A DNA stretch of 62,337 bases, filler included. It is 5 parts of 5 records of this genome, joined end to end, with 100 filler letters (N's around TTAATTAATTAA, not from the genome) between each part and the next. Parts side by side here need not be neighbours in the genome. Positions count along the whole stretch, not along the records: positions 1 to 23,703 come from DRR723986_4761; 4 more parts are not named here. The stretch is one strand, 5' to 3'. The notes below the pieces were generated by a model that had not been told where the DNA came from, ran no database searches, and saw only the letters and a list, made by a program, of their open reading frames with translations. This document shows, one piece after another, positions 2,026-22,119 of the stretch. A program made the position numbers and the translations under genes. The first letter of the stretch is position 1, and each line of letters begins with the position of its first letter.

Positions 2026-3469
2026 GGGGAGTGGGCAAAACCTGGGAGTCTTTGTCTATGATGGTGGTTGCACAATGGGGGAATTGCCATGGATTTGCGG
2101 ATCATCGTCGAGACGACATTTGAGAACGGAACCACGAGGACGCAGCGCCTGGGACGCTTGTCCCGCCCATTTCGAAGTACTCAGCCCGAGGGTTTCGGGA
2201 TGCTGCTCGAAGATGCAAAATCCATGCTTTGGCAATTGCAGCAAGCCATCCTGCTTGACCAAATTGATGAGATCTCTGAGGCGAGTAGGGTCTGTCCTGA
2301 TTGCAACAAGCTCAGAGCGATCCATGACTATCGCCCCAGAATTTTGGACACATTGTTCGGTCGGTTTCGCGTCAAGGCGCCGCGTATTCGTCGTTGCGCC
2401 TGCAACGCCAAGTCCGAGGATACCCTTGGTGGACCACTGTCGCCGATGGCCCGTTTCTTTCCGGACCGATCGACACTTGAATTGCAGCGCCTTCAAGCCG
2501 AGCTTGGTGCGCGGCATTCGTTTCGAGAAGCAGCGCGTATAATGGAGGTATTTCTACCATGCGCTAAGCAGACCAATACCTCGGTGCGTAACCGCCTCGG
2601 AAAGATCGCAATGAAAATCAGTGACAGCGCGCGTGCAGAACCGGTTGTCCCGTCCACAGGTAAAAACGCAACTCCGGTGACGGTCTTTCTCGACGGCGCG
2701 CATATTCGGAGCAGGCCGGAATACCAGAAACGGCACCTGGATGTGGTGGTCGGCAAGATCGAGAGCGCGCACATGTGCCGTCGTTTCGGGCTTGTGCAGC
2801 AGGCCGCTCAATCACCAGCGAGGCAGCTACGGCAAGACCTGCAAGCAACTGGATGGGACGGCGAGAGCCCGGTTACGGTAATTTCGGATCGAGAACCCGC
2901 ATTGCCCAATCTCGTGCGCTACGCTGTCGGCGGGCCAGTTCGCCATATCCTTGACTGGTGGCACATCTCGATGCGGGTAAACATGTTGAGAACGCCGTGA
3001 GGGGGCTGCTGCAAGCCAAGAATTTCGCGGGTATTCCGGTACTGTTCTGCCGGCCCGCAGAGCGGTTGCGATGGTATCTGTGGCATGGAAAGGTGCGAGT
3101 CGCCACGACGGTCCTTCGATGGCTCAAGACCGATTGCGAGCGCTTCTGCAAGGATGATCCGGAAGTGCGCGATGCGACTGCACGCGTGCGAGCGCGCTGC
3201 CGGGAACTTTATACCTATCTGGCAAACAACATGGGAAGCATGACTAATTATGGGCGGCGATATCGCAATGGTCTTGCGATCTCCTCGTCCCGCGCTGAAG
3301 GCTGCGTAGACGACATTGGCAACGCGCGCATGGGAAAACGTCGACGCATGAGATGGTCACCCAAAGGCGCGCACAGAGTCGCTGTCGTTAGAGCCGCCGT
3401 TCTTGATGGAAGGTTGACCGGCGAATACCGGCGGGCCGCTGCATAACCCCCAAGTTTTGCCCACTCCCC
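2026..3469 (+). mobile_element. ISKra4-family insertion sequence
   Basis: 22-bp terminal inverted repeats GGGGAGTGGGCAAAACCTGGGA (2026-2047) and 3448-3469, 20/22 match, enclose the transposase. No flanking direct repeat seen. Confidence 0.85.
2089..3446 (+). pseudogene. ISKra4-family DDE transposase, frameshifted
   Basis: CPDC/RRCAC zinc-like region, VFLDGAH, VISDrEP, HILDWWHISMR, ISSSRAEG and MRWSPKGAH. An apparent 1-nt loss at about 2980 (GTAAACAT, expected V-K-H) splits it into the tracked ORFs 2068-3000 and 2958-3446. Confidence 0.85.
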
Positions 3470-3512
3470 ATGAAGCCTTCGGGATCTTCTATGTGACTGC
3501 CTCGGGTTTTCT

Positions 3513-5168
3513 TTAGGCTAGGCGGCTCTTCAGCAAATCACCGGATTTAAGAAGGATGGGGTGGCCCACCATCGAAAATGCAGTGTTTATCTGCTTGAGG
3601 GCGCGCAGCGTTTCTTGGTGGAAGTTGCTTGTCTCGATGCTCTCGGTAAGCCCTTCCCGCAGGCGAACGATGTGGCTGCGTTGCAGTTTCTGTTCGACTT
3701 TGCGCACTTTCTCCTTGGCGGCCACAAGCTCGCGCGCCTCAGCCGGGTTCTGGTTCATCATCACATTCAAGGCGAGTTGCACGTTGCTTTGGACACGGTC
3801 CGCAAAATCGCGGATTTCTTCGCGCCCTTGCGGCGAGAATTGAAGGTTTTGAATATGCAGACGCTTGGCAAGCTCCAGCATGATCCGTGCGATGGCGTCG
3901 GATGCGGAATCGAGGCTGGATGAAATAGACGCAAGTTCCATCGAGCGGCGGCTGAGATCTTCGTTCATGCCTCTTTGACCGAGGCGGGCGAGATAGAGTT
4001 TAATTTCAAGGTGCGTTTGTTTGATTGCCGTGTCCTGTTTGGCGATCAGGGCCGCGGTCGCACCGTTCCACTGGTCATAGAGGGGTACGACCGCAAGCAG
4101 CATCAGTTCGATCTTCTGGCCCATTCCAAGTAACTCGCGCGCGGCACAATCAATGGCGCGCTGGGGCCGGTCCAGCAATGCAGAATCAAGTGCGCTGGCA
4201 GCAGTTAAAGCAGCGTCCGGCCCGGGTTCTTCTGCCATAACATAGGACAGCGCAGCCGTTATTGGCCCCACAAACGGAAGCGCCACAAGCGCCAGAGACA
4301 GGTTGAAAACGAGGTGCAGATTGATCGTTTGCCTGGCGGGCGCCGCGCCAAACAGGTTCAAGAGGTCTGGCATGCCGACAATTAAGAGAACCGCCAGCGT
4401 GGCGCCACCGCCCCGCAGGATCAAATTGCCCATGACCACCCGCCGCACCTCAACGGGTGCGGTATAGGTCAGCATGAAAGCGATCAATCCCCCGCCCAGG
4501 TTCGCGCCCAAGACCATTGTCGCGGCTGCGGCGGTTGGCAATATGGACTGTCCCGCCAGCGTGACAAACAGCAAGACCGCCGCGACACTGGAGTGGACCC
4601 CCCAAGCGAGCACTGCGCCGATAACAAAGGCCGTCATCAGGTCCCGCCCGAGATAGGCCATGATGACCTGTGTCGCGGGGTTGGCTATCATCGGTTCCGT
4701 CGCGCTGCGGATCATATCCAGGGATACAAAGATTAGCGCGAGACCGATCATGATCCGGCCAATTTGCCGCGTATTGCCGCCCTCACCGCGCAAAAACACG
4801 GTGACCCCGATAACAAGTAACAGTGGTATCAGGAAGGGTTGCCGCGCCATCAATAGCTGAGTAACCACTGCAGATCCGACGTCGGCACCCAGCACTATGG
4901 CCAGCCCGGCCGCAGTCGCGAGCCCACCCTTGCTCACAAAATTGGACACCAGAACGGCGACGGCGGTAGAACTCTGCAAGAAAACGGCTGCCAACATGCC
5001 GGTTCCGGCAGCAAGCAATCGGTTCTTTGTGGAGTGCCGCAGCCAGATAAGCATGGGTGCAGCAAACCCACGTTCAACCCCGGTGCGCACCAATCGCACA
5101 GCCCAGATCAAGAGGGCTGCAGCCCCCGCAATATGGATCAGAGTTTGAATTACATGCGGTTCGTTCAC
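3513..5168 (-). CDS. Na/Pi cotransporter family protein with C-terminal PhoU-like domains
   Basis: Repeated LQSSTA...GADVG and VHSSVA...GANLG signatures, hydrophobic N-terminal half, helical C-terminal ESIETSxxH motif. Confidence 0.9.
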   Translation of the reverse strand: MNEPHVIQTLIHIAGAAALLIWAVRLVRTGVERGFAAPMLIWLRHSTKNRLLAAGTGMLAAVFLQSSTAVAVLVSNFVSKGGLATAAGLAIVLGADVGSAVVTQLLMARQPFLIPLLLVIGVTVFLRGEGGNTRQIGRIMIGLALIFVSLDMIRSATEPMIANPATQVIMAYLGRDLMTAFVIGAVLAWGVHSSVAAVLLFVTLAGQSILPTAAAATMVLGANLGGGLIAFMLTYTAPVEVRRVVMGNLILRGGGATLAVLLIVGMPDLLNLFGAAPARQTINLHLVFNLSLALVALPFVGPITAALSYVMAEEPGPDAALTAASALDSALLDRPQRAIDCAARELLGMGQKIELMLLAVVPLYDQWNGATAALIAKQDTAIKQTHLEIKLYLARLGQRGMNEDLSRRSMELASISSSLDSASDAIARIMLELAKRLHIQNLQFSPQGREEIRDFADRVQSNVQLALNVMMNQNPAEARELVAAKEKVRKVEQKLQRSHIVRLREGLTESIETSNFHQETLRALKQINTAFSMVGHPILLKSGDLLKSRLA

Positions 5169-5227
5169 GAGCGTGTTTGCTTTCGTTTGCTGGTCTCAAA
5201 AGGCAGACGGATCAGCTGCGGGCCAAG

Positions 5228-6040
5228 TTATCTTGATGATGCACCACGCAGCACGGCCAAAGCACTTGCGTGCAGTTGCGGCGTTGATGCGGCGAGAAAT
5301 TCCCCTTGATGCTCAAGTTGGGGGGCGTTGCCGCTCCAATCGCTCACCACCCCACCGGCACCTTCGATCACCGGGATTTGCGCTGCGATGTCATATGCAT
5401 GAACGCCTGTCTCGACCAGCAGATCAATTTGACCGATGGCCAGCAAACCGGCCGCATAACAATCATGCGAATATCGTGTGAGCATGACAGCCTTGCGCAG
5501 GGTGGCGAATTTTTTGGCGTTTTCTTCAGAAAAGAGGAAGGGATCAGAGGTATACATAACCGCATTCGGCAAGTCCCGGCAGGAACTTACTGTCGCTATT
5601 TGATCATTGAGCCGCGTGCTTGTCGCATTTTCAGAGAACCAGCGTTCACCGGTGATCGGCTGGTCTATCAGGCCCAGAACCGGCCTGCCAAGATATGTCA
5701 CCGCGATTTGTGTACCAAAGCAAAGCGACCCGGACAGGAAAGACTTTGTCCCATCGATCGGATCCAGATGCCAACACCATTCCGCCGACGTCTGGTGGTC
5801 AGAAAACTCCTCACCTCGAATGCCGTGGTCAGGAAAGGCCGCGCATATTCTGTCCCGTAAGACCAGTTCGATCTCGCGGTCTGCGATGGTCACCGGGCTT
5901 TCATCCTGTTTGCTCGCAACCTCGGGCCTCGTACGAAAGTACTGTCTTGCAATGCGACCGACTTCGTCAGCCATGCCCATAGCCAGCGCCGCAGCCCCGT
6001 TGGGCGTCACAACAGGCGTGTGGTTTTTCATATCCATCAT
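5228..6040 (-). CDS. inositol monophosphatase family phosphatase (HisN-like)
   Basis: SPVTIAD, GEE, WHLDPIDGTKSF and YDIAA..PVIEGAGG motifs. The start overlaps the upstream stop (ATGA at 6037-6040). Confidence 0.88.
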   Translation of the reverse strand: MMDMKNHTPVVTPNGAAALAMGMADEVGRIARQYFRTRPEVASKQDESPVTIADREIELVLRDRICAAFPDHGIRGEEFSDHQTSAEWCWHLDPIDGTKSFLSGSLCFGTQIAVTYLGRPVLGLIDQPITGERWFSENATSTRLNDQIATVSSCRDLPNAVMYTSDPFLFSEENAKKFATLRKAVMLTRYSHDCYAAGLLAIGQIDLLVETGVHAYDIAAQIPVIEGAGGVVSDWSGNAPQLEHQGEFLAASTPQLHASALAVLRGASSR

Positions 6041-7065
6041 GAGTTTGCCCCAATTATTTGGGTTGCATGTTCGCGCAACCGTTTCAAAAGCGCCTCTATG
6101 TGAATGCAAAGGTGTTCGGCATCGGACACTTCGCGCGCAAGGACTTCTTGCAGCTTGGCGTCTGGCGCAAGTTTGGTTTCGCTGACGGCGCGATGAGGGA
6201 TGAATGGGTCGTCTCCTTCGCCCGGAAAACGAAAGGCTGGCGAACAATAGCCGACTTCTTCCTCCAGCCCAAAAGCCCGCACTTGTGGTATGTCATTGCC
6301 CAACAAGAGCAACTCCATAAGCAGCCGCGCCTGAGGAATGTCCCCTTCGCCACTGCGACAACACTGTTGCGCCCAGCCGCCTTGGTCTTCGACAATCCTC
6401 GCGTCCTTGATATGCACGTCGGTGATATGCGCAGCCATGGCCCGCAGCGCGTCGAGCGGGCGCTCGTAGGCATTGATCATATTGGTGAAGTCGAACATCA
6501 GCGACAGATTGGGGTTGCCGACCGCCTCAACAATCTGGACCAGTTCTGCCCCTGTCAGGTCTTCATGCTGCTCTAGCGTGAACCGGAAAGTCCCATCAGG
6601 ATCAAGCTCTTGCAAGTGGCGCAAATCATCAACCGCCCTCGCAATGACGGAGGAAACCCGGCCTTCGTATCGGGGATAGCACCGAATGGACGTGGCGCCC
6701 GTCTGATGCCCGATTGAAACGGCTGTACGCAACGACGTCACTTCGGTCTCGCTGATTTCCAGGTGTACGTCGAGCCCCAGTTTTCTTGCCTTTAGCCCAA
6801 AGCGCGCGAGACCATCGGCATCCATGCGACCAAGGCTGGCCTCTTCGCCGTCCTCAAGATGAATCTTGACGCCGCTGTGTTTGTGTTTCGCCGCGAAATC
6901 CAACAAGTCGGACGGCGTGTAACCACCATACCGGAAATTCAGGTGCAATGAGTAAGCATGTGTATAAAGCGCGATTGCGTCGATCCGGTCGATCAGCGTC
7001 TCGGCAGCCTGAACAGACAGGGGCGAAAGTACTGCATCCTCCGTGGTTTCTGCACGCGCCATCAT
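6037..7065 (-). CDS. yihM: YihM-like TIM-barrel metalloenzyme (AP endonuclease 2 / sugar-phosphate isomerase fold)
   Basis: LYTHAYSLHLN, GVKIHLEDGE, YPRYEG, TLEQHEDL, FDFTNMINA, VHIKDA and FGLEEEV..PAFRF closely recall E. coli YihM. Translationally coupled to a yihL-like gene. Confidence 0.75.
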   Translation of the reverse strand: MMARAETTEDAVLSPLSVQAAETLIDRIDAIALYTHAYSLHLNFRYGGYTPSDLLDFAAKHKHSGVKIHLEDGEEASLGRMDADGLARFGLKARKLGLDVHLEISETEVTSLRTAVSIGHQTGATSIRCYPRYEGRVSSVIARAVDDLRHLQELDPDGTFRFTLEQHEDLTGAELVQIVEAVGNPNLSLMFDFTNMINAYERPLDALRAMAAHITDVHIKDARIVEDQGGWAQQCCRSGEGDIPQARLLMELLLLGNDIPQVRAFGLEEEVGYCSPAFRFPGEGDDPFIPHRAVSETKLAPDAKLQEVLAREVSDAEHLCIHIEALLKRLREHATQIIGANS

Positions 7066-7781
7066 AGGCTAAACCGGATCTCCAGGGCTTCGAAACGCCA
7101 GAATTCGCGATCAATCTGTATCACACGGCCCTGAGCATCCGATTTCACCCGACGAATATAAAGACCGGGAGCTCCGCTTGTGCATCCAAGCACCTGTTGC
7201 GGATCGCCCTCCAGTCTGACCGGACGGATCATCAAATCGGTCAACTTGGGCTCGATCCCGTAATCTTCCGTCCAAACTGCGGTAAATGAACGGTCCGCCA
7301 GCTTTTCCGCATAGTCGGGAGCGACAGAGCTATTGATCTGCACATCGTGCACAAATATCCGGTGCCCGTTAAACGCGCCCCATCCCTGAACCCTCAGAAG
7401 CGGCGCGCCCTCGGCAATACCGAACCGGGCAGCATCTGCTCCGGTCGCTGCGACGTATTCCTTGCTGGTATCAAGCCAATTGGCCGAACCTTGGCCGGCA
7501 GCAGCCTGCTGAAAGCTGACATGCTGTTGCGGGTCATAGATGAACCGAGGCTGAGAAATATACCAACCCCGCCGGTCAATGCGAAAAATTGAACCTTCGT
7601 TTTCAAGTGCCAACAAAGCCTGCCGCAAAGACATCCGTTTGACGCCCAGCATATCGGCCAATTCGCGTTCGGTTGGGAGTTTCTCGCCCGGTTTCCAGCG
7701 CGATTCGTTTAGGGCTGCCTTGAGGTTTCGAAGTGCCTTCCCGGCCCAAGTTTCCTGATCGGCTCCCAAATTTGCGTTCAT
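7062..7781 (-). CDS. yihL: GntR/HutC-family regulator with UTRA domain, YihL-like (PhnR-related)
   Basis: KLPTERELADMLGVKRMSLRQALL HTH. IFRIDRRGW..QPRF, GWGA..GH and IQIDREFWRFEA closely recall E. coli YihL. Confidence 0.78.
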   Translation of the reverse strand: MNANLGADQETWAGKALRNLKAALNESRWKPGEKLPTERELADMLGVKRMSLRQALLALENEGSIFRIDRRGWYISQPRFIYDPQQHVSFQQAAAGQGSANWLDTSKEYVAATGADAARFGIAEGAPLLRVQGWGAFNGHRIFVHDVQINSSVAPDYAEKLADRSFTAVWTEDYGIEPKLTDLMIRPVRLEGDPQQVLGCTSGAPGLYIRRVKSDAQGRVIQIDREFWRFEALEIRFSL

Positions 7782-7870
7782 TTTTTGCTCAAATTCCCAT
7801 TTCGGAGCCGAATTCTCTGACCACTTACATGAAACTGTTGCATTGGCGCGGTAACAAGCGCAAGCTATTC

Positions 7871-7884
7871 TTGGTTTAAACCAA
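7871..7884. promoter_or_regulatory. candidate operator of the YihL-like regulator
   Basis: Perfect palindrome TTGGTTTAAACCAA in the divergent intergenic region, fitting the HutC-subfamily GT-N-TA-N-AC pattern. Confidence 0.65.
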
Positions 7885-7957
7885 TAATGGAAAACATTCA
7901 ACCGTGACCTGTTCACTTGGACAGGAAAACACGATGGCAACTTGGAGGAATAAGAGG

Positions 7958-9499
7958 ATGAACAAATCGATTTGGCGTACCTGCGCCCTGTTTTGTTCTT
8001 TGATGATCGCGGGCTCGGCAGCCTGGGCAGATGAACGCCCCAACCTGAATGTCGCGGTAACGCTCAACCCGCCACGCCTTGACCCAATGGCCGAAAACTC
8101 AAACGTAAACTCTCGCGTCATGAAAAACGTGCTGGAGACTTTGATCCGGACGGATTCACAAAATGACGGCGCGCTGGTCCCTGGCCTCGCCGAAAGCTGG
8201 AGCCGTATTGACGGGCGCACAGTAGAGTTCAAAATCCGTCCCGGCGTGACATGTCACAACGGCGAAGACTTTGATGCAAGCGATGTGGCCTTTAGCCTTG
8301 GGCCGATACGTTTCATGGGCGAAGATGCTCCGGGCTGGGCAATTGCACAGCAATACCTTGGCGGGCTTGAGGCGGTTGACGTCAAAGACAGCCACACCGT
8401 TCAAATCCGCTTCAAGGAGCGTGATCCGCTGATCGAATTGCGCTTTGCCAATTGGATGACGGAAATGGTCTGCCAGGACGCATATGAGGCGGCGGGCAGC
8501 TGGGAATCCTGGGTACAGAACCCTGTTGGAACCGGACCCTACAAAATTGGCGAAGTGGTGCATGGCGATTACATCCGCCTTGACGCAAATGACGCGTATT
8601 GGGGCGGCGCGGTCCCTGCTAACAGCGTGACCTTCAAGATCGTTCCTGAAATGGCCTCGCGCATTGCCGGTCTTACGACGGGTGAATACGACTTCATCAC
8701 CGAACTGACCGTTGATCAGTTCCCGGTGCTGGACGCAAATGAAGATCTGACCATCGCCGGCGGTCCGATCCGCAACATTCGCGTCATCATTTATGATGAA
8801 AACAACCCGCAGCTGCAGGACGTTCGCATTCGTCAAGCGTTAAGTCATGCCATTGACCGCGACCTGATTGTCGACGCCATGTTCGGCGGCCGCGTGACGG
8901 TTCCCAATGGACTTCAGATGAAAATCTTTGGCGATCTCTACATCGCGGATCATCAGGGCACTTCTTATGATCCTGAAAAGGCTAAGGCCCTTCTGAAAGA
9001 AGCGGGCTATAATGGCGAGGAAATCTCGTACCGGTATCTTCAGGACTACTACACCGGCGAAGTCGACACCGCACAGATCCTTGCCGAGATGTGGCGTCAG
9101 GTCGGGCTTAACATCAAGCTGGAGCTGGTCGAGAACTGGGGCCAGATCGAAGATGTTGCCGAAGGCCGTGGAATCTTCAACTGGTCGAACAGTGCCGAAT
9201 ATCCTGACCCACTTGGTCAGATCTATCGCCTCTACGGGCCCAATGGCTGGTTCCAAGTGAATGGCACTTACGAAAGCGAAGAGTTCAACGCCCTTGGCGA
9301 GGCGCTTCAGATCGGGGAGACGCCAGAAAGGATCGAAGCGATGCGCGCCATGCTTGAGATTTACGAGCGCACAGACCCGCCGGGCACCTACTTGCACACG
9401 TTGCCGATGTTCTACGGCGTGCGCAACACCATCAATTGGGTGCCGACGGATACTGGCTTCATGGATTTCAGCGCGAATTCCCTGAGCTTTTCCAACTGA
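7958..9499 (+). CDS. ABC transporter substrate-binding protein, family 5 (Dpp/Opp-like)
   Basis: Signal peptide, PGLAESW, HNGEDFDASDV, PVGTGPY and RQALSHAIDR. GGAGG RBS at 7944-7948. Confidence 0.9.
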   Translation: MNKSIWRTCALFCSLMIAGSAAWADERPNLNVAVTLNPPRLDPMAENSNVNSRVMKNVLETLIRTDSQNDGALVPGLAESWSRIDGRTVEFKIRPGVTCHNGEDFDASDVAFSLGPIRFMGEDAPGWAIAQQYLGGLEAVDVKDSHTVQIRFKERDPLIELRFANWMTEMVCQDAYEAAGSWESWVQNPVGTGPYKIGEVVHGDYIRLDANDAYWGGAVPANSVTFKIVPEMASRIAGLTTGEYDFITELTVDQFPVLDANEDLTIAGGPIRNIRVIIYDENNPQLQDVRIRQALSHAIDRDLIVDAMFGGRVTVPNGLQMKIFGDLYIADHQGTSYDPEKAKALLKEAGYNGEEISYRYLQDYYTGEVDTAQILAEMWRQVGLNIKLELVENWGQIEDVAEGRGIFNWSNSAEYPDPLGQIYRLYGPNGWFQVNGTYESEEFNALGEALQIGETPERIEAMRAMLEIYERTDPPGTYLHTLPMFYGVRNTINWVPTDTGFMDFSANSLSFSN

Positions 9500-9558
9500 C
9501 AAACCGGCAGGGCGGCTTTGGGTCGCCCCGCCAACCCTGCCCTCAGGAGCGCCAATCT

Positions 9559-10548
9559 GTGGCATCTCTACTCCAACTTGATAATCTCAGCCTGCATTTC
9601 GCTATTGGCGATGTGGAGATACCCGTCGTGCGCGGTGTCAATCTTTCGGTATCCAAAGGGGAAATCGTCGGGCTGGTCGGAGAGAGCGGCTGCGGCAAAA
9701 GTGTAACCTGCATGGCTGCGATGGGCCTTCTGGACGACGCTGCCACGCTAGGCGGTAACGTGCTTTGGAAGGACCGAAAGATCAAGACCACCAACGACGC
9801 CGCCATGAGCGCCCTTCGCGGCAATGAAATGGCGATGATCTTTCAGGATCCGATGAGCGCGCTCAACCCGGTGAAACGCATCAGCAAACAGCTGACCGAG
9901 GCCATTCGCATCAACAACCCATCGCGCCTTGGCGGATCGGCTCTGCGAGACCAGGCGATCCAGTTGCTCCGCGATGTCGGCGTACCCGAGCCCGAAAAGC
10001 GCCTGTCAAACTATCCGCATCAATTGTCCGGCGGGCTTAGCCAGCGTGTGATGATTGCCATGATGCTGGCAGGCGACCCGGACCTGCTGATCGCGGATGA
10101 GCCGACAACGGCGTTGGATGTGACGGTCCAGGCCCAGATCATGGACCTGCTGAAAACCCTACGCGACACGCGCGATATGTCAGTCATTCTGGTCACCCAT
10201 GACCTTGGTGTGGTGGCGGAGGTTTGTGATCGGATTTACGTGATGTATTGCGGACGCATCATCGAAAGTGGCAGAGTTCGCGATGTCTTTGCCAATCCGC
10301 GTCATCCCTACACACGCGGGCTCTTGGCGTCCTTGCCACGGGTGGATCAGGCCAAAGGCGATCTTTCTCCGGTGCCCGGCGTTGTGCCCTTGCCGACCGA
10401 GCTGGGGTCGGGATGCGATTTTGCGGCGCGCTGCGCGCGCAAGCTGCCCCGATGTGACAGCGAGACCCCTGCATTGAGCGCTGCCTCAGGTGGAACCGAT
10501 TGCGCCTGTTTCAATCCCTGTGACGGATCGGGAGGCGCCGCGCAATGA
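9559..10548 (+). CDS. ABC ATPase (DppD/OppD-like)
   Basis: [27 protein letters not shown], oligo_HPY tail. GTG start after AGGAG. Confidence 0.9.
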
Positions 10549-11561
10549 CCCAAGCCCCCCAGACCGCCGACCCGATCCTGACCGTGAAAGACGCACATTG
10601 CGTGTTCAACACCTCTCAGAGAGAGACGCTTTTTGGACCACCAAAAAAACTGAAGGCTGTCAGTGGTGTCAGTTTCGACATCCTCCGGGGTGAGTTGTTC
10701 GGCGTCGTCGGCGAAAGCGGCTGCGGCAAGAGCACAACCGCAAAACTGATCCTCAATATGGCGCGGGTCTCGCAGGGCGAGATTACCTTTGATGGACAGT
10801 CTCTTCTGGGGCTTTCTGATACAGAGTGGAAGCCCTTGAGGCGCCGCATCCAGTATGTTTTCCAGGACCCATTGGGCGCGCTTGATCCGCGGATGGTGGT
10901 GCTGGATCAGGTGGTCGAGCCGCTGACTATTCACGCCATCGATGAGGCCAAAGACCGCAAGACGCGCGCCGGGGAGATCCTTGAACTGGTTGGGCTTAGG
11001 CCACACCAGTTTTCCAAATACCCGCACGAGCTGAGCGGCGGCCAGAGGCAACGTGTGGTGCTGGCCCGTGCACTGATCTTGGAGCCGGAGCTGCTGGTCT
11101 GTGACGAGCCGATCTCGGCGCTGGATGTGTCCATTCAGGCTCAGATCATCAACCTGCTGCAAAAGCTGCGGCGCGAGATGGGCCTGACGATTCTGTTCAT
11201 CAGCCATGACCTGTCGGTCGTGCGCCACCTCTGCGACCGTCTGGCCGTGATGTATCTTGGCAAGATCGTCGAGCAGGGACCGGCAGACGCCATTTTCGCC
11301 AATCCCCGTCACCCCTATACCCAGGCCCTGATTTCGGCGATCCCGGTCCCCGAACCGGGCGCCAAATCCAGCCGCATCATGCTGCAAGGTGAGCCGCCCA
11401 GCCCCATCGACCCGCCACCCGGCTGCCGGTTTCATCCCCGGTGTGCTTTGGCGGACGCGTCGTGCAAAGCTGCTGAGCCCGAGGAGCAGGCCATGGGTCC
11501 CGGCCACGTCGCGGCCTGTTTCAAGGCACTCCCCGACAGCGATCCGGGGATGGTGTCATGA
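10545..11561 (+). CDS. ABC ATPase (DppF/OppF-like)
   Basis: [32 protein letters not shown]. Confidence 0.9.
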   Translation: MTQAPQTADPILTVKDAHCVFNTSQRETLFGPPKKLKAVSGVSFDILRGELFGVVGESGCGKSTTAKLILNMARVSQGEITFDGQSLLGLSDTEWKPLRRRIQYVFQDPLGALDPRMVVLDQVVEPLTIHAIDEAKDRKTRAGEILELVGLRPHQFSKYPHELSGGQRQRVVLARALILEPELLVCDEPISALDVSIQAQIINLLQKLRREMGLTILFISHDLSVVRHLCDRLAVMYLGKIVEQGPADAIFANPRHPYTQALISAIPVPEPGAKSSRIMLQGEPPSPIDPPPGCRFHPRCALADASCKAAEPEEQAMGPGHVAACFKALPDSDPGMVS

Positions 11562-12490
11562 CCCTGCGTTTCGTGCTTCAGAAATTGGCCCGTGCCCTTT
11601 TGACGGTGATCCTTATCGTGACCACAGTCTTTGTGGTGCTGCGCCTGACGGGCGATCCAGCCATGTATGTGCTTGGGATCGAGGCCGATCCGCGCGCGCT
11701 TGAGCAATTCCGCGAAAAATGGGGGCTGAACGATCCCATCTGGCAGCAATACCTGCAATTCCTGTGGAATTGTCTACGCGGCGATTTCGGCTATTCCTAC
11801 TTCGAGGAGCGCGATGCCATGACAGCCGTGATGGAGCGGGTTCCCAAGACTGTCCTGCTCATGGGCGTGACGGCCGTTTTCACGCTTCTCGTCGGAATTC
11901 CAACGGGGGTGCTGGCGGCGATCCATCGCAACAGTTGGATCGACCGCTCGACGATGACAGCCTCTGTTGCCGGGTTCAGCCTGCCGAACTTTGTGTTGGG
12001 GATTTTCCTGATCTTGACCTTCTCAGTCTTTCTCAGATGGCTGCCGACAGGCGGAAGCGGCACTTGGCAGCATCTTGTTCTGCCGGTTCTGACAATGGGG
12101 CTGGCCGAGGCCGCCGTCTTTGCTCGCTTCACCCGGTCGGCCATGCTGGAGGCCCTTAACCAGCCCTATATGCGCACCGCGCGCGCCAAGGGTCTGCGCC
12201 GGAATGCTACTGTCTGGAAACATGCGCTGCCCAATGCCGCGATCCCTCTGGTGACCATCACCGGGTTTTTCGTCGGCACGCTGATCGCAGGCGGCGTTGT
12301 CACGGAGACGGTGTTTTCCTGGCCCGGTCTTGGGCGCTTGCTGGTGACTTCGGTGTCCAATCGCGATCTGGCAGTGGTCCAGATCATCGTGATGTTCATC
12401 GCGGTCTCGATGGTTGTGACCAACCTGACCATTGATCTTCTTTATGGCTGGCTCGATCCGCGCGTAGGCAGTGCAAGGTCCAGAGAATAA
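11558..12490 (+). CDS. ABC permease (DppB/OppB-like)
   Basis: GDFGYS, YMRTARAKG EAA loop, ETVFSWPGLG. Confidence 0.9.
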   Translation: MTLRFVLQKLARALLTVILIVTTVFVVLRLTGDPAMYVLGIEADPRALEQFREKWGLNDPIWQQYLQFLWNCLRGDFGYSYFEERDAMTAVMERVPKTVLLMGVTAVFTLLVGIPTGVLAAIHRNSWIDRSTMTASVAGFSLPNFVLGIFLILTFSVFLRWLPTGGSGTWQHLVLPVLTMGLAEAAVFARFTRSAMLEALNQPYMRTARAKGLRRNATVWKHALPNAAIPLVTITGFFVGTLIAGGVVTETVFSWPGLGRLLVTSVSNRDLAVVQIIVMFIAVSMVVTNLTIDLLYGWLDPRVGSARSRE

Positions 12491-12493
12491 GCC

Positions 12494-13351
12494 ATGAGTG
12501 ATCAAGATCTTACAGCACGGCCAAAGATCAAAATTCCCGTCATCGTCGGTCTGTCCTTTGGCTGGCTGATTGCGATGGTTCTGATCTCGCTTACCCTTGA
12601 CTTCTGGCAGCCGCACGACTTTCAGGCGATGAACCTGCGCGCCCGTTTTGCCCCGCCAGTATGGATGGAAGGCGGCAGCTGGAGCCATATCTTCGGCACC
12701 GACAACTTGGGTCGCGATGTTCTCAGCCGCCTCGTGGTGTCCATCCGGATCAGCCTTTTGGTGGCACTGCTGGGCACTGTCATCGGAGCCGTTCTGGGAA
12801 CGCTAATCGGCTTGCTGGCGGCCCGCTTTGGCGGCATCGTCGATGATCTTGTGATGGTCGGGATCGACTATCAGGCGGCATTGCCCTTTATGATCCTCGC
12901 GCTGGCCGTCGTCGCCTTTGCAGGCAACAGCCTGACGTTGTTTATCCTGCTGATGGGGCTTTATGGCTGGGAGCGGTACGCCCGGATCGCCCGCGGCTTG
13001 GCACTGTCGGCGATGACCCAAGGCTATGCCGTGGCCGTCAAGACATTGGGCGCCTCGCCGCTGCGCATCTATGGGCGCCACATTCTGCCCAATATCGCCA
13101 ACGCTTTGATCGTGAACATGACGCTGAATTTCCCGCAGACCATCATGCTGGAGACCTCTCTTAGCTTTCTGGGGTTGGGCATTCAGCCGCCTATGACGAG
13201 TTTGGGCAACATGGTCGGCTTTGGGCGGGACTTCCTGCTGAATGCCTGGTGGTTGGCCACGATCCCAGCCTTGGTCATTTTCGTCACCACATTGGCGTTT
13301 GCGCTGGTCGGCGACTGGGTAAGGGACCAATTGGACCCTACCAGTCGATAA
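12494..13351 (+). CDS. ABC permease (DppC/OppC-like)
   Basis: HIFGTDNLGRDVLSR, RHILPN, SLSFLGLGIQPP. Confidence 0.9.
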   Translation: MSDQDLTARPKIKIPVIVGLSFGWLIAMVLISLTLDFWQPHDFQAMNLRARFAPPVWMEGGSWSHIFGTDNLGRDVLSRLVVSIRISLLVALLGTVIGAVLGTLIGLLAARFGGIVDDLVMVGIDYQAALPFMILALAVVAFAGNSLTLFILLMGLYGWERYARIARGLALSAMTQGYAVAVKTLGASPLRIYGRHILPNIANALIVNMTLNFPQTIMLETSLSFLGLGIQPPMTSLGNMVGFGRDFLLNAWWLATIPALVIFVTTLAFALVGDWVRDQLDPTSR

Positions 13352-13370
13352 AGCCAAACCAGATCAAGGA

Positions 13371-14303
13371 ATGACACAGGTGGGCACCGACCCGTTCAAA
13401 CAGCCAGGCTCATTCTGGCGCGGCAACATCCATACTCATTCGACCCGCTCGGACGGTGTATTGGAACCCGAAGAAGTCGTTTTGCGATACAAGGCCGAAG
13501 GCTATGACTTTCTGGCCATGACCGATCATTTTGTTGGGCTATTTGACTATCCTTTGACCGACATCAGCGCCTATGCGGACGAGTGTTTTACAACCATTCT
13601 AGGGGCAGAGCTTCATACGGGTGCGATGGACAACGGCGAGATCTGGCACATTCTTGCCGTTGGACTGCCGACCGATTTCGCACCGCCCGATGCCCCTGAT
13701 TTCCAGCCCATCGCGGCGCCGGAAAGCGCCCCCGCGCTTGCGCAGCGCGCCCGGGATGCAGGCGCTTTCGTTGCCATTGCGCATCCTGACTGGTCGCAAA
13801 TGACGCTGGCGGACGCCGCCTCTATCAAGGCGGCACATGCGGTCGAAGTCTACAACCACGGCTGCTTCAACGGATGCGACCGAGGTTATGGGTTTCACAC
13901 CTATGAGCGGCTTTTGGCAGCTGGGCGGAAGCTGACGCTGTGCGCCACGGATGATGCCCATTTCTTCGAACCAGACCATTTCGGCGGCTGGGTCGTGGTC
14001 AAAGCGCGTGAAAACACTGCCCCTGCCCTTCTCTCAGCCTTGAAGGAGGGGGCTAATTACGCATCCACCGGGCCGGAGTTTCACGATGTTGTCTGGGAGG
14101 ACGATCACGTCGAGGTGTCAAGCTCTGCTGTCAGCGCGGTGATCCTTCAGGGCAGGAGCACCCGCACTGTTGTGCGCCATGGCCATTCGATGACACGCAC
14201 TGTGCTGCGGTTCGACAAGCTGGCTCCCTCTCCATGGCTGAGGGTCACCATTGTGGATGCAGCCGGAAAACGCGCCTGGATGAACCCGATCTGGCGCGAT
14301 TGA
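13371..14303 (+). CDS. PHP-domain metallophosphoesterase (CehA/McbA-like family)
   Basis: GNIHTHSTRSDG, AMTDH, AHP and TDDAH metal-binding motifs. No signal peptide. Confidence 0.85.
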   Translation: MTQVGTDPFKQPGSFWRGNIHTHSTRSDGVLEPEEVVLRYKAEGYDFLAMTDHFVGLFDYPLTDISAYADECFTTILGAELHTGAMDNGEIWHILAVGLPTDFAPPDAPDFQPIAAPESAPALAQRARDAGAFVAIAHPDWSQMTLADAASIKAAHAVEVYNHGCFNGCDRGYGFHTYERLLAAGRKLTLCATDDAHFFEPDHFGGWVVVKARENTAPALLSALKEGANYASTGPEFHDVVWEDDHVEVSSSAVSAVILQGRSTRTVVRHGHSMTRTVLRFDKLAPSPWLRVTIVDAAGKRAWMNPIWRD

Positions 14304-14350
14304 CCTTGGGCGGGCTGCGCGGAGCGCGACAAACCCCGCGCCTTGCTTTG

Positions 14351-16036
14351 TCAGCTTAAGGATCGCAGTGGCGCATTGGGGCGTTGGCTTTGGCCAATGC
14401 CTTTGGATGCGCCGACGGGTGCGTTTTCCGGTGCCAGAACAGGCCGCCCGGCGATCAGATCAGCAGCGCGTTCGGCCAGCATCATCGTGGGGGCATTCAG
14501 GTTGCCGTTCGGCTCTGACGGGAAGACAGAACTGTCCACCACCCTAAGCCCGTCGATGCCATGAACCTTCAGTTCCGGATCAACCACCGCCATGTCATCC
14601 ACCCCCATCCGGCAAGACCCGCAGGGATGATAGGTGCTTTCCAAATTGTCGCGCACAAAATCGTCCATCTGGTCATCGGTGCTAACCCCCGGACCGGGCG
14701 CGATCTCACCATCGTTGAAAGCATCCATGGCTGGCTGCGCCATGACCTCGCGGGTCAGGCGGATGCAGTCGCGAAAGCCTTTGCGGTCCTCTTCCCGGTC
14801 CAGATAGTTGAACAGGATATGCGGGTGGACATAGGGGTCAGAAGAGGTCAGGCGCACATATCCCCGGCTTTTGGGTTTGTTTGGCCCGGTCAGGATCATG
14901 AATCCATGTCCCTTGACCGGCGAATGGCCGTCATATCGCACTGCTGCGGGCAGGAAGTGGTACTGGATATCCGGCCATTCCACATCTTTTGACGACCGGA
15001 TGAAACCGCCCGCTTCAAAGTGGTTCGTGGCACCAAGACCTTGTTTGGTCAGCAACCACTGCAGCCCGATCAACCCTTTAGAGAACCAGTTCATCTTGGT
15101 GTTCAGCGTCAAAGGCTGCTTGCAGGCGAACTGGATGTAGATCTCGGCGTGATCCTGCAGGTTCTCGCCCACACCGGGCAGATCGTGCAGCACCTCAACC
15201 CCGACTTTTTTCAGCACCGCCGCTGGGCCAATGCCAGAGCGCTGCAGCAGATGAGGCGAACCGATAGGGCCGCTGGAAACGATCACCTCCCGCCGGGCAC
15301 TGACCTGACGGGTGCTGCCACCCCGGTCGTATTCCACACCGATGGCTCGTCCGTCTTTCAGCAGCACACGCCGGGTCATGGCCTTGGTGCGCACTTCAAG
15401 GTTGGGCCGCTCCATCGCGGGGCGCAGATAGGCCTTTGCAGCAGACCAACGCACACCGTTCTTGACAGTCATATGCATCGGCCCAAAACCCTCTTGTAGA
15501 TAGCCGTTCGGATCGTCTGTCTTGATATAGCCTGCCTCAACCCCGGCTTCGACAAAAGCGCCATAGAGCGGGTTTTTCATCCCGTTCCCGTTGTTGACGT
15601 TCAGCGGCCCGCTCTGCCCACGGTAGGTGCTATCGCCACCTCCCTGAAAGCTCTCGGATTTCTTGAAATAGGGAAGACAGCTGGCATGGCCCCATCCCGC
15701 GGCGCCCATTGCCTCCCATTGGTCAAAGTCACGCGGATGACCGCGCACATAAACTAGTCCGTTGATCGACGACGACCCGCCAAGCACTTTGCCGCGTGGG
15801 CAATGAATACGACGCCCCTTGAGGCCCGGTTCGGGCTGAGTTTCGTACTTCCAGTTATAGGTCTTGGTATTCATCGGCATCGAAAAAGCCGAGGGCATCT
15901 GGATAATCGGGTTGGTATCTGAGCCGCCAAATTCCAGCACCAGAACGCTGACCTTGGGGTCCTCGGTCAGCCGCGCTGCCAGAACGCAGCCTGCGGACCC
16001 GGCTCCGACGATCACATAGTCGAATTCTTCTGCCAT
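14351..16036 (-). CDS. betA: choline dehydrogenase-like GMC oxidoreductase
   Basis: GAGSAGC, CPRGKVLGGSSSING, GVGENLQDH, YHPCGSCRMG, NGNLNAPT. Lies outside a betIBA context, so the substrate may not be choline. Confidence 0.8.
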   Translation of the reverse strand: MAEEFDYVIVGAGSAGCVLAARLTEDPKVSVLVLEFGGSDTNPIIQMPSAFSMPMNTKTYNWKYETQPEPGLKGRRIHCPRGKVLGGSSSINGLVYVRGHPRDFDQWEAMGAAGWGHASCLPYFKKSESFQGGGDSTYRGQSGPLNVNNGNGMKNPLYGAFVEAGVEAGYIKTDDPNGYLQEGFGPMHMTVKNGVRWSAAKAYLRPAMERPNLEVRTKAMTRRVLLKDGRAIGVEYDRGGSTRQVSARREVIVSSGPIGSPHLLQRSGIGPAAVLKKVGVEVLHDLPGVGENLQDHAEIYIQFACKQPLTLNTKMNWFSKGLIGLQWLLTKQGLGATNHFEAGGFIRSSKDVEWPDIQYHFLPAAVRYDGHSPVKGHGFMILTGPNKPKSRGYVRLTSSDPYVHPHILFNYLDREEDRKGFRDCIRLTREVMAQPAMDAFNDGEIAPGPGVSTDDQMDDFVRDNLESTYHPCGSCRMGVDDMAVVDPELKVHGIDGLRVVDSSVFPSEPNGNLNAPTMMLAERAADLIAGRPVLAPENAPVGASKGIGQSQRPNAPLRSLS

Positions 16037-16039
16037 CGT

Positions 16040-16822
16040 TCAGCTCATCTCCAGCGCTTTGCCAACTTCTGCGTGCAGATTGGTCATGATGCGCTTTTTC
16101 AACGTGATAAATTCTGGGCTGGTCAGCACCGTGTAGTCGCGCGGGCGCTCGATCTCGACCGGGATCGTGTCGATGATCCGGCCAGGCCGGGCTGACATCA
16201 CGTAGACCACGTCGCCAAGAAACACCGCTTCATCAATGTCGTGGGTGATGAAAAGCACGGTCTTACGCTCTTCCTGCCAGATCTTCAGCAGCAGTTCCTG
16301 CATGACCGAACGGGTCTGGCTGTCGAGCGCGCCAAAGGGTTCGTCCATCAACAGCACTTCGGGGTTCACCGCCAGCGCCCGTGCAATGGCCACCCGTTGT
16401 TTCATCCCGCCGGACAATTGCGAAGGGTAGCTGTCGGCAAAGCGGGTTAGGCCAACAGCATCGACATAGTGGCGCGCGCGCTCAACGCGTTCGGCGCTTG
16501 ATGTGCCGTTAACGGAAAGGCCGAATTCCACATTTTTCTGAACCGTCAGCCACGGGAAAAGCGTATAGCTTTGCGGCACCATTCCCCTGTCCGCGCCGGG
16601 TTTTTCGATGGTAACACCGTCCACCAGCGTGCGCCCTTCCGTTGCCTGATTAAGCCCGGCAATCAGGTCCAGCGTGCTGGATTTCCCGCAGCCCGATGGA
16701 CCGACGATGACCGCGAACTGCTGATCCGGGATCTCCAGCGTCAGGTTTTCCAGCGCCACAACCCAGTTTGCCGGGTCCGATCCGAACCGGACGGTTACGT
16801 TATCGAGCAAAACCTCACCCAT
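16040..16822 (-). CDS. NitT/TauT-family ABC ATPase
   Basis: GPSGCGKS, LSGGMKQR, LLMDEPFGALD. Confidence 0.9.
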   Translation of the reverse strand: MGEVLLDNVTVRFGSDPANWVVALENLTLEIPDQQFAVIVGPSGCGKSSTLDLIAGLNQATEGRTLVDGVTIEKPGADRGMVPQSYTLFPWLTVQKNVEFGLSVNGTSSAERVERARHYVDAVGLTRFADSYPSQLSGGMKQRVAIARALAVNPEVLLMDEPFGALDSQTRSVMQELLLKIWQEERKTVLFITHDIDEAVFLGDVVYVMSARPGRIIDTIPVEIERPRDYTVLTSPEFITLKKRIMTNLHAEVGKALEMS

Positions 16823-16833
16823 ATCCGTTCTCC

Positions 16834-17643
16834 TTATCGACCCAGGTTTTCCCAGGGCAGCGCCAGACGCTTGAGCCATTTGAAGATCAGGTCCGTGCCC
16901 AGCCCAAGAAAGCCGATCACGAAGATGCCCACGAAGATTCCTGCCGGATCAAAGCCGCGCATCGATTGCAGGATCATGTAACCAAGCCCCGCGTTTGCGG
17001 CGACCAGTTCGGCCACCACAAGAAAGGTCCAGGCCCAACCCATGGTCACCCGAAGCGTGTCGAAGATGCCCGGAAGTGTTGCTGGAAGCATTACCCGCCA
17101 GACGATCTGCCCCCTGCTGGCCCCCAAGGTGTAAGAGACATTGAACAAATCGCCATGCACACCGCGCGTCACGTCCGAAATCATGACGATCTGTTGAAAG
17201 AAGGTGCCAAGGAAAATGACCGCAATCTTCTGCTCCAGCCCGATCCCGATCCACAGGATCAGCAAAGGGATCATCGAGGTCACGGGCAGGTAGCGCATAA
17301 AATTGACCACCGGCTCAAGGGCGGAGGCGACGATGCGAAAGCCGCCCATGAAAATGCCGATGGGAATAGCGATGATCGAGGATAGGAAAAAGCCCAGATA
17401 TATTTCGGTCAAAGACACCCCGATGTGCTTTTTCAGGCTCCCATCACCAAGCTTGTCCAGGAACGATGCACAGACATCACCTGGCGATGGCAGGAAATCA
17501 CGGCTGACAAAGCCGATTGCCGTGGCCAGATACCACCCAATCAGGATCGCGGCGGCCACTACCAGCCCAGTGCTGATCTCCACAGGCTTCGGAATCGCAC
17601 GTTTCGGCGTAAAGTACCTGTCGGAAAAGCCGAGCTTTGCCAT
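16834..17643 (-). CDS. NitT/TauT-family ABC permease
   Basis: FLPSP, RYLP..PLLILWIG, WTFLVVAEL..GLGY. Confidence 0.9.
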   Translation of the reverse strand: MAKLGFSDRYFTPKRAIPKPVEISTGLVVAAAILIGWYLATAIGFVSRDFLPSPGDVCASFLDKLGDGSLKKHIGVSLTEIYLGFFLSSIIAIPIGIFMGGFRIVASALEPVVNFMRYLPVTSMIPLLILWIGIGLEQKIAVIFLGTFFQQIVMISDVTRGVHGDLFNVSYTLGASRGQIVWRVMLPATLPGIFDTLRVTMGWAWTFLVVAELVAANAGLGYMILQSMRGFDPAGIFVGIFVIGFLGLGTDLIFKWLKRLALPWENLGR

Positions 17644-17662
17644 GACTTCGTTACCCCTTCGA

Positions 17663-18637: not shown

Positions 18638-18662
18638 TGTGTTTTCTCCTGTTGGATTTGGT

Positions 18663-21057: not shown

Positions 21058-21060
21058 GAT

Positions 21061-22029: not shown

Positions 22030-22100
22030 CGGTTTCCCCCGTTTGGGGAAATGCTATGAGGGAATTAGACTTAGATAATGATCATTGTTTAAAACTTTAC

Positions 22101-22116: not shown

Positions 22117-22119
22117 CTA

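Follow-up and report, generated by a model that had tools for sequence, protein, structure and literature searches.

A Roseobacter-type locus in which counterparts of Escherichia coli YihL and YihM accompany an agrocinopine-type importer and predicted phosphate-ester hydrolases

Introduction

The Agrobacterium plasmids pAtK84b and pTiC58 carry the acc operon of the agrocinopine system: in this order, accA, for a periplasmic binding protein, genes for two ATPases and two permeases, accF, for a diesterase of the GDPD family, and accG, for a member of the IMPase family. In the account of AccA by El Sahili et al., the protein is described as recognising a pyranose-2-phosphate end, with N54, S419, Y375 and Y376 bonding the phosphate and N54, E510, N284 and S419 anchoring the OH1 of the sugar (PMC4526662). 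Twelve of the 13 residues named there agree in their numbering with the C58 translation; position 504 is W, not E. Here we analyse a locus in which an importer of this kind, as judged by homology, stands beside counterparts of the Escherichia coli genes yihL and yihM. It occupies positions 3513-14303 of a stretch of 62,337 nucleotides (the window, by which we mean the whole stretch that was analysed) from a marine Roseobacter-type bacterium.

Two further systems invite comparison. One is E. coli yihL-yihM-yihN, in which YihN is a transporter of the major facilitator superfamily (MFS). The full-text literature, with subscription journals outside its scope, yielded no functional study of yihL, yihM or yihN; matches for yihN reportedly include a dye-uptake screen (PMC8131027). 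In two papers a yihL deletion serves merely as a linked marker (PMC4759930) and YihL is listed with transcription factors of unknown function (PMC9308461). The other is PhnR-PhnSTUV, the 2-aminoethylphosphonate uptake system of Salmonella.

We propose, at a probability of roughly one in two, that the locus serves the import and catabolism of an organic phosphate ester (most probably a phosphodiester) and follows the acc/arc plan. What is known here is that plan; what is new is an uncharacterised enzyme family, shared with E. coli, embedded in it.

Results

Gene content and likeness to the acc operon

Scanning for open reading frames (ORFs), combined with Pfam and NCBIfam models, gives ten genes in 3513-14303, at the positions reported in a first-pass annotation made from the letters of the window alone:

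3513-5168, minus strand: Na/Pi cotransporter-PhoU fusion, 551 amino acids (aa), end gene of the leftward run (Pfam Na_Pi_cotrans 112.8 bits, PhoU 32.5 bits)
5228-6040, minus strand: IMPase-family phosphomonoesterase, 270 aa, HisN-like subfamily (Pfam Inositol_P 154 bits)
6037-7065, minus strand: YihM orthologue, 342 aa, xylose-isomerase-like TIM barrel (Pfam AP_endonuc_2)
7062-7781, minus strand: YihL orthologue, 239 aa, GntR/UTRA regulator (Pfam GntR 65.7 bits, UTRA 70.4 bits)
7958-9499, plus strand: AccA-family (cluster C, family 5) periplasmic binding protein with a signal peptide (SBP_bac_5; N-terminus inspected)
9559-10548, plus strand: Opp-type ATP-binding cassette (ABC) ATPase, AccB-like (ABC_tran and oligo_HPY; probable GTG start at 9559, ORF open from 9436)
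10545-11561, plus strand: Opp-type ABC ATPase, AccC-like (ABC_tran and oligo_HPY)
11558-12490, plus strand: ABC permease, AccD-like (BPD_transp_1)
12494-13351, plus strand: ABC permease, AccE-like (BPD_transp_1)
13371-14303, plus strand: PHP-family metallohydrolase, predicted cytoplasmic, in the accF position (translation without signal peptide; 20 bases after the permease gene)

Both halves of the arrangement described in the first-pass annotation are borne out: the leftward run of regulator, TIM barrel, IMPase and Na/Pi gene, with ATGA stop/start overlaps read directly at the yihL-yihM and yihM-IMPase junctions, and the divergent family-5 importer operon (binding protein, two ATPases, two permeases) that ends in a cytoplasmic PHP gene. 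The observed arrangement is real, far beyond chance. Between the stop of the binding-protein gene (9499) and the start of the first ATPase gene (9559) lies a GC-rich inverted repeat (9506-9540) that could be an intercistronic stem-loop; a scan of 3300-14500 for promoters and terminators returned counts at shuffle level (5 vs 4.1; 14 vs 11.7).

The substrate-binding protein (SBP) has AccA (4ra1) as its top solved relative, matched over its full length at 286.6 bits (E 3e-84), well ahead of HbpA/DppA, the next family, at 115 bits. The five importer components correspond one-to-one and collinearly to the K84 proteins, with identities of 42% (AccA), 46% (AccB), 47% (AccC), 45% (AccD) and 42% (AccE). 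All four phosphate ligands of AccA (N54, Y375, Y376 and S419) are kept in seven SBPs, that of the window and those of L002, L003, L004, L005, L007 and L050 (labels beginning with L denote individual loci). Because the four are conserved, the ligand of the importer is very probably a phosphate ester, and the earlier proposal that the family-5 system is a phosphoester importer gains support from this conservation and from the homology to AccA. In the pyranose OH1 anchor and gate, N54, N284, S419 and W178 are retained, with G in place of E510 and E in place of W423. Given these changes in the pyranose pocket, the ligand would not be agrocinopine and need not be a sugar. The protein appears to belong to the AccA family by descent, and an identical ligand is unlikely.

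The likeness to acc/arc of pTiC58 and pAtK84b extends beyond the importer and its unusual SBP-ATPase-ATPase-permease-permease order. Behind the permease genes comes one for a hydrolase; the locus includes an IMPase-family phosphatase; a repressor gene sits at the divergent promoter; and a Na/Pi-PhoU gene is divergent from the importer, as on pTiC58, where a gene for a 550-residue protein of the Na/Pi cotransporter family, 33% identical to the window protein over its whole length, is divergent from accR. The differences lie largely in the enzymes. The slot of the diesterase is occupied by the PHP protein, whereas acc has the GDPD-family AccF; the regulator is GntR/UTRA (YihL), whereas acc has DeoR (AccR); and neither a GDPD nor a DeoR gene was found in 3513-14303 with Pfam and NCBIfam. 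The window IMPase is 28% identical to AccG and sits in the other operon, YihM is without counterpart in acc, the residues with which AccA contacts the pyranose are replaced, and the host is a marine Roseobacter-type bacterium as opposed to a plant-tumour plasmid. By homology, then, the locus follows the acc/arc plan and departs from it only in its enzyme families. The first-pass annotation had spoken of an undescribed pathway, a description that has to be given up insofar as the logic of importer, phosphodiesterase, IMPase-type phosphatase and Na/Pi protein is that of Agrobacterium acc/arc (PMC4526662).

Two observations on plasmids bear on the acc family. On pAtK84b (L084:652-1548), two genes after accG, a gene annotated as 'myo-inositol catabolism protein' is weakly YihM-like (31% identity across 105 residues; E 9e-5, obtained with a small database), so that the classical acc operon, too, may have a xylose-isomerase-like TIM barrel in its company. 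The closest plasmid-borne relative of the window SBP (46% identity) is on a Roseibium aggregatum plasmid (L083:6423-14196), in a run that joins an AccA-type importer to a PhnF-annotated GntR regulator and an alkaline-phosphatase-family gene – another importer with a phosphate-ester enzyme.

The two genes at the left-hand end of the locus code for proteins with a phosphate theme. The Na/Pi-PhoU protein, which has Na_Pi_cotrans repeats and a PhoU domain, scores 114 bits against NF037997 (cut-off 50). For the IMPase the closest NCBIfam model is HisN, at 244.3 bits below the equivalog cut-off of 275.15; the homologue in L010 also falls under it (254.6 bits), and the top solved relative is 5eq7 (198 bits). 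We place the window protein, from these scores, within the IMPase family as a sister of HisN.

The PHP hydrolase as a candidate diesterase

The PHP protein (13371-14303) passes the NCBIfam model for CehA/McbA metallohydrolases (90.6 bits, cut-off 80) and scores 26.5 against a cut-off of 26.4 for Pfam PHP. Its solved relatives are distant PHP phosphoesterases, all weak matches with E values of 3e-6 or worse. H21, H23, D28, H53, E80, H138, H163, D195 and H197 are invariant in six of six homologues; we take these residues to be metal ligands.

In L002, L086 and L088 a homologue of the PHP gene comes after an AccA-type ABC operon. The genome of L040, a Rhodobacterales metagenome-assembled genome (MAG) close to the window, contains two operons of AccA-type ABC and PHP genes: one has permeases 93-94% identical to those of the window, and in the other (L088:3-6451) a DSP-type phosphatase comes after PHP. 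On a Mesorhizobium chromosome (L089:8339-14430) a UgpB-like ABC transporter, a HAD sugar-phosphatase-like hydrolase and a PHP gene (a 46-48% homologue) stand together. Importer, PHP protein and predicted phosphomonoesterase hence recur together, with the putative phosphatase drawn from three different families, a recurrence that fits a diesterase role for PHP. The phosphoesterase activity predicted for PHP has its basis in this gene context, and the PHP subfamily, with importers and phosphatases, may constitute a general diester-utilisation cassette.

YihL, YihM and a shared palindrome

The TIM barrel is 47% identical to E. coli K-12 YihM (b3873) across 324 aa without gaps (E 2e-107), and the regulator 42% identical to E. 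coli YihL across 235 aa (E 5e-69). When the window proteins were compared with the whole K-12 chromosome in six frames, yihM was the sole match to YihM at E<=0.01 (E 1.9e-94), and yihL (7e-60) was far ahead of the runner-up (6.6e-7) for YihL. In the reverse direction E. coli YihM matches only 6049-7020 of the window and E. coli YihL only its counterpart; E. coli YihN has zero matches in the window. On these comparisons the two genes are identified as full-length counterparts of yihL and yihM, as the first-pass annotation had held, with reciprocity assessed between the K-12 chromosome and the window. The nearest relative of the window YihM, at 77% identity, is in a Sulfitobacter MAG.

The region between the two divergent operons contains one further feature:

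7872-7883, divergent promoter region: exact 12-base palindrome TGGTTTAAACCA, predicted YihL operator

It is the single exact copy in the window, 90 bases from the start of yihL and 74 from that of the binding-protein gene. When the divergent promoter regions of six loci (the window, four Oceanospirillaceae and the Sulfitobacter MAG) are aligned, one invariant block stands out, TTGGTTTAAACCA. Exact copies of the palindrome occur in 29 of 89 loci, E. coli K-12 included, every copy beside a yihL gene and none of the 29 loci being of the MocR type described below. There is one copy per locus in Enterobacteriaceae, two in alphaproteobacterial yihL loci and two to four in Oceanospirillaceae. The K-12 chromosome (4.64 Mb) has one exact site, ending 13 bases before the yihL start codon; sites with one mismatch number 15, close to the 11 of a reversed-pattern control. 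In four other whole genomes nine of ten exact sites are at yihL loci, and the reversed control gives 0. The tenth, at 6271-6282 of contig C114 (L090) of the Sulfitobacter MAG (G001), lies on a 6.7-kb contig without a homologue of any gene of the locus and is left unexplained.

From E. coli to the window, this palindrome is probably the operator of YihL. Its distribution is that expected of an autoregulatory operator of HutC type, and we take it to resemble HutC-family half-sites. The shared site also supports orthology, independently of sequence identity. E. coli yihL-yihM-yihN and the window thus have in common the yihL-yihM order and the exact palindrome upstream of yihL; E. coli differs in having the MFS transporter YihN and in being without the IMPase, the PHP and Na/Pi-PhoU genes and the BetA-paralogue module (described below) within 10 kb.

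Resemblance to PhnR-PhnSTUV is of a more distant kind. PhnR is the top named model for YihL (151 bits, cut-off 297), and PhnS is the only named model matched by the SBP_bac_6 binding protein of rhizobial yihM loci. However, the scores are far under the cut-offs, and the loci examined have no phosphonatase or C-P lyase genes.

Neighbourhoods of yihM in other genomes

Of 185,579 species genomes covered by a pattern scan, 181 encode a YihM relative, and the best 80 loci of the 181 were surveyed. Neighbours were counted by tblastn (E<=1e-15, query coverage of at least 40%, identity thresholds set per query) in flanks of 10 kb. All 21 loci of Enterobacteriaceae are yihL-yihM-yihN, with no IMPase, GMC enzyme or NCS1 permease within 10 kb. 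An IMPase gene is present in 46 of the 80 loci, all 46 belonging to the 59 that are not enterobacterial. In 40 it comes immediately after yihM in the same orientation, in five loci of Oceanospirillaceae it closes an AccA-type ABC operon (the accG position), and in L025, the remaining case, the YihM and IMPase matches overlap. Ten of the 59 have instead an arginase-family gene directly after yihM, its product 35% identical to the ureohydrolase encoded further along the window, and three have neither. The arginase-family gene overlaps the yihM stop in L018, L021, L023, L026, L038, L044, L051, L065 and L070 (yihM at about 10001-10970 in full-length loci), and several of these arginase-family loci encode a MocR regulator and an SBP_bac_6 ABC transporter as well. 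A PehA-like phosphoric/sulfuric ester hydrolase is found in three of the 80 (L003, L004 and L006).

In one Albidovulum sp. protein of 610 aa (P0125; PF01261 and PF00459) YihM and IMPase are fused, the single case in a search for longer proteins. As yihM and IMPase genes normally overlap by ATGA, a genuine fusion and a one-base sequencing or assembly difference are both possible.

YihL is encoded in 31 loci and a MocR-type regulator in 37; binding proteins are SBP_bac_6 in 33, PotF-like in seven and AccA-like in seven. The data support the view that the yihM-linked transporter is interchangeable, with YihN in the 21 enterobacterial loci, a putative AccA-type ABC importer in the clade of the window, and predicted SBP_bac_6 or PotF-like ABC systems in other alphaproteobacteria. 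Two points of the first-pass annotation are borne out here: that an ABC importer takes the place of the MFS gene yihN, and that YihM homologues associate with phosphate-handling genes (IMPase in 46 of 80 loci, Na/Pi-PhoU in six).

A quick maximum-likelihood tree of YihM (IQ-TREE) was built from the window and 74 of the 80 loci, six having been dropped with matches of <280 aa. It falls into four supported groups that match the partner genes: Enterobacteriaceae with MFS (21 rows, support 100), an AccA-ABC group of the window, Sulfitobacter and six Oceanospirillaceae (8 rows, support 97), a ureohydrolase group (11 rows, support 90) and an alphaproteobacterial IMPase group (35 rows, support 98).

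These neighbourhoods bear on the possibility that the phosphate theme is coincidental, with an importer for a peptide or for some opine-like compound that bears no phosphate, and with IMPase, PHP and Na/Pi-PhoU as unrelated neighbours. Family-5 SBPs mostly bind peptides, nickel complexes or opines, NCBIfam gives the window SBP just sub-threshold nickel and peptide names, and the PHP family is named for carbamate hydrolases. Such a coincidence is nevertheless very improbable in view of the margin by which AccA leads (286 vs 115 bits), the conserved phosphate ligands, an IMPase gene whose translation is coupled to that of yihM and which is retained in 46 of 59 loci, and the presence of a different phosphatase family beside PHP in two unrelated operons.

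Fold and predicted chemistry of YihM

A profile built from 23 members of the YihM family gave eight matches at E<=0.1, among them the isomerase Art22 (E 1.5e-12), an uncharacterised Planctomyces protein, AsbF, MJ1311 and tagatose 3-epimerase. The AlphaFold model (predicted local distance difference test score 94.6, predicted template modelling score 0.92) is closest, among the fold matches listed, to isomerases and epimerases of ketoses and sugar phosphates, and a look-up in the ESM Atlas returned solely 'sugar phosphate isomerase/epimerase' clusters. The literature search found no description of the reaction of Art22.

Invariant residues of YihM are H36, H41, H69, D72, E74, E103, E165, H167, E168, D169, D192, H218, D221 and E268-270. 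Of these, E165, D192, H218 and E268 form what we take to be the metal-site pattern of epimerases. YihM is only 14-20% identical to the ketose 3-epimerases, UlaE (L-xylulose-5-phosphate 3-epimerase) and Art22, and differs from them in its extra invariant His, Asp, Glu and Arg and in a conserved C-terminal extension that, in the model, ends in a long helix (residues 305-341). The fold matches form a shallow gradient within one superfamily, so that fold alone does not determine the reaction; and because many further polar residues are invariant, the chemistry of YihM may differ from that of any known member.

The first-pass annotation suggested that YihM might be a metal-dependent phosphodiesterase. 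Endonuclease IV is the one known phosphodiesterase of the superfamily, and it is absent from the eight profile matches and from the 50 matches listed by each of Foldseek and VIA. Its absence lends no support to kinship, short of excluding it, and with isomerases and epimerases as the profile and fold relatives the suggestion is unsupported. A broader version would have YihM itself act as a phosphodiesterase or phospho-lyase, sufficient alone in E. coli, where the products would pass to central metabolism, with the PHP and PehA-like proteins as accessories. It draws on the fact that YihM is the sole enzyme common to all 80 loci and the sole enzyme of enterobacterial yihLMN, on an invariant set with more His, Asp and Glu residues than sugar epimerases have in their four-ligand site, and on L038, where a 29%-identical Na/Pi-PhoU gene lies beside a yihM-ureohydrolase pair without IMPase. 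We think it rather unlikely all the same: the profile and fold matches listed are isomerases, epimerases and dehydratases, endonuclease IV not being among them, and other candidate diesterases accompany AccA-type importers, namely PHP in the window, L002, L086 and L088 and the PehA-like hydrolase in the three loci named above.

A conserved partner module at 14351-23028

The first-pass annotation presented 3513-14303 as a complete module. This proves too narrow, as a conserved set of partner genes extends at 14351-23028:

14351-16036, minus strand: GMC oxidoreductase, paralogue of BetA (choline dehydrogenase), final gene of the module (NCBIfam betA 785.7 bits, cut-off 732.1)
16040-18916, minus strand: NitT/TauT-type ABC transporter (ATPase 16040-16879, permease 16834-17643, SsuA-family SBP 17663-18916, start uncertain)
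18663-19697, minus strand: CE4 (polysaccharide-deacetylase/PuuE-like) hydrolase (weak NCBIfam matches)
20284-21057, minus strand: short-chain dehydrogenase/reductase (SDR; NCBIfam SDR models)
21061-22029, minus strand: agmatinase-like ureohydrolase (NCBIfam agmatinase 184 bits, cut-off 174)
22120-23028, plus strand: LysR-type regulator, divergent from the module (NCBIfam LysR models, none over cut-off)

The GMC enzyme shares 52% identity with E. coli BetA, and its top solved relative is choline dehydrogenase 9lq0 (633 bits, against 375 for the runner-up). Genomes G002 and G003 each hold a second BetA-like gene (55% and 58%), which identifies the yihM-linked enzyme as a BetA paralogue; in L040 an aldehyde dehydrogenase gene comes after it. 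The ureohydrolase has agmatinase 1wog (196 bits) and a guanidinobutyrase (157 bits) as its top solved relatives. The three NitT/TauT-type genes have TauB-, TauC- and SsuA-like NCBIfam matches, all under the cut-offs.

GMC homologues (68-79% identity) occur in 27 of the 80 yihM loci, all of them non-enterobacterial. The ABC genes recur in L040 and L055, their place being mostly taken by an NCS1 permease, found in 29 of the 59 non-enterobacterial loci. CE4 homologues (58-76%) are present in 13 of 80, SDR homologues in 9-10, ureohydrolase homologues (67-84%) in 10-11 and LysR homologues in 11, and the full partner set in seven (L012, L019, L024, L040, L056, L058 and L071). In about 20 rhizobial loci the 10-kb flank takes in just NCS1 and GMC, and the edge of the locus cuts through the CE4 gene. 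The full set shows at least five arrangements (convergent, divergent and co-directional) across alpha- and gammaproteobacteria, and on a Mesorhizobium plasmid (L019) the genes form the co-directional run ureohydrolase-SDR-CE4-NCS1-GMC-YihM-IMPase. The association is also seen in Marinobacterium (L050). Recurrence of the association in different gene orders argues for a functional link between the partner module and yihM-IMPase.

Candidate roles in vitamin salvage were dropped. For thiamine/hydroxymethylpyrimidine, CytX scored 84 bits against a cut-off of 310; for pyridoxine, PdxR scored 378 against 320, but the rhizopine MocR model scored higher. As a pyridoxine 4-oxidase the GMC enzyme reaches 270 bits, against 633 for choline dehydrogenase.

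The partner genes suggest a more specific version of the proposal that the locus handles a phosphate ester, in which the substrates are esters of small cationic alcohols, choline-like or guanidino-alkyl; phosphocholine-type diesters and lombricine-type guanidinoethyl phosphate diesters are examples. The BetA paralogue would oxidise the alcohol to an acid and the ureohydrolase would cleave the guanidino group. Several features point this way: a GMC enzyme that passes the BetA model yet is itself a second copy beside a canonical-looking BetA in two genomes, with an aldehyde dehydrogenase after it in L040; alternative importers of PotF-like (polyamine) and PhnS-like type, with MocR-type regulators replacing YihL in 37 loci; an IMPase closest to phosphatases of histidinol phosphate, an amino-alcohol phosphate; a glutamate gained at position 423 of the AccA-type pocket; and a ureohydrolase either in the partner module or, in ten loci, directly after yihM. 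It is still doubtful, for it leaves YihM, the CE4 hydrolase and the SDR without obvious role, and the ureohydrolase is equally near agmatinase and guanidino-acid hydrolases. More improbable again is that the substrates are phosphorylated (amino)cyclitols or keto-sugars of an inositol- or rhizopine-like pathway, with the IMPase as a cyclitol phosphatase, YihM as an inosose enzyme like IolE, IolI or MocC, and the ureohydrolase removing an amidino group.

Flanking sequence

Insertion sequences border the locus on the side of the Na/Pi gene:

579-1889: IS110-family transposase, in the left flank of the Na/Pi gene (Pfam/NCBIfam)
2068-3000 and 2958-3446: ISKra4-family transposase, split in two overlapping ORFs, adjoining the Na/Pi gene

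With insertion sequences flanking the locus and the window YihM grouping with gammaproteobacterial sequences, horizontal acquisition is suggested. Further along the window, 23968-31527 encodes housekeeping functions: the glycolate oxidase subunits GlcE and GlcD, methionyl-tRNA formyltransferase, two peptide deformylases and a PatB-type C-S lyase.

Discussion

The phosphate-ester proposal can be set out as a sequence of steps, for which we infer each catalytic activity and the order, the direction in which phosphate travels, how the two modules are linked, and the substrate itself. The AccA-type periplasmic protein would hold the compound by its phosphate-bearing end, for import through the AccBCDE-like transporter. 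The co-transcribed cytoplasmic PHP hydrolase, in the position of accF, would cleave the diester to a phosphomonoester. YihM, as a divalent-metal enzyme of isomerase/epimerase type, could then rearrange the carbon skeleton of the phospho-intermediate or of its dephosphorylated product, with the translationally coupled IMPase releasing phosphate and the Na/Pi-PhoU protein moving it across the membrane. The freed alcohol would pass to the partner module, there to be oxidised by the BetA paralogue, and the SDR, CE4 hydrolase and ureohydrolase would complete the breakdown. YihL is predicted to bind TGGTTTAAACCA between the two operons and to be released by the ester or an intermediate.

Several results weigh against this proposal. 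Enterobacterial yihM loci are without a phosphatase within 10 kb. Their transporter is just distantly like organophosphate antiporters: against the organophosphate:phosphate antiporter model TIGR00881 the Escherichia and Buttiauxella YihN proteins score 72.6 and 63.4 bits, below the cut-off of 407.75, and the closest K-12 paralogue of YihN is another uncharacterised MFS gene, with GlpT and UhpT not among the paralogues returned. In ten loci the partner of yihM is a ureohydrolase gene, IMPase being absent, so phosphate would not be universal to YihM substrates. Na/Pi-PhoU genes are scarce, the six loci being joined by a seventh at 29% identity, and PHP is linked to yihM in just one of the 80 surveyed loci besides the window. 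The PHP model that is passed is named for carbaryl (carbamate) hydrolases and the Pfam score is borderline, so a non-phosphate ester is possible. In the binding protein, the window and six yihM-linked SBPs depart from AccA by W423E, T430Q, E434L, M372L and E510G/P. Finally, an isomerase-type enzyme needs a carbonyl or enolisable group, and this fits poorly with the choline-like alcohol implied by the BetA paralogue.

Of the interpretation offered by the first-pass annotation, the phosphate theme and the swapping of transporters stand; the chemistry given to YihM was wrong or unsupported, and the extent of the system incomplete. On the enzyme combination of the locus the literature search found nothing relevant.

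A wider hypothesis, to which we would attach low weight and which we offer tentatively, is that a widespread but undescribed route for the use of phosphate esters of small cationic alcohols has YihM as its hallmark enzyme, with guanidino derivatives used in one clade. The YihM step would be a new metal-dependent rearrangement or elimination coupled to IMPase or ureohydrolase, the products would be processed through a dedicated BetA paralogue, and YihL would sense the ester in E. coli and related bacteria. Candidate compounds may be choline-like or guanidinoethyl, for example the phosphodiesters of annelids and other invertebrates.

E. coli yihL, yihM and yihN are among the genes of that organism without assigned function. 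The locus described here and its 80 relatives give these genes a chemical class (an imported phosphate ester), a predicted operator, co-evolving partner enzymes and tractable hosts. They also place the agrocinopine-type importer plan beyond plant-tumour plasmids, re-used with different enzymes in marine Roseobacter and in Oceanospirillaceae. If it is true that the substrate is a common environmental organophosphate, the locus would represent an added route in the cycling of phosphorus and nitrogen in sea and soil.

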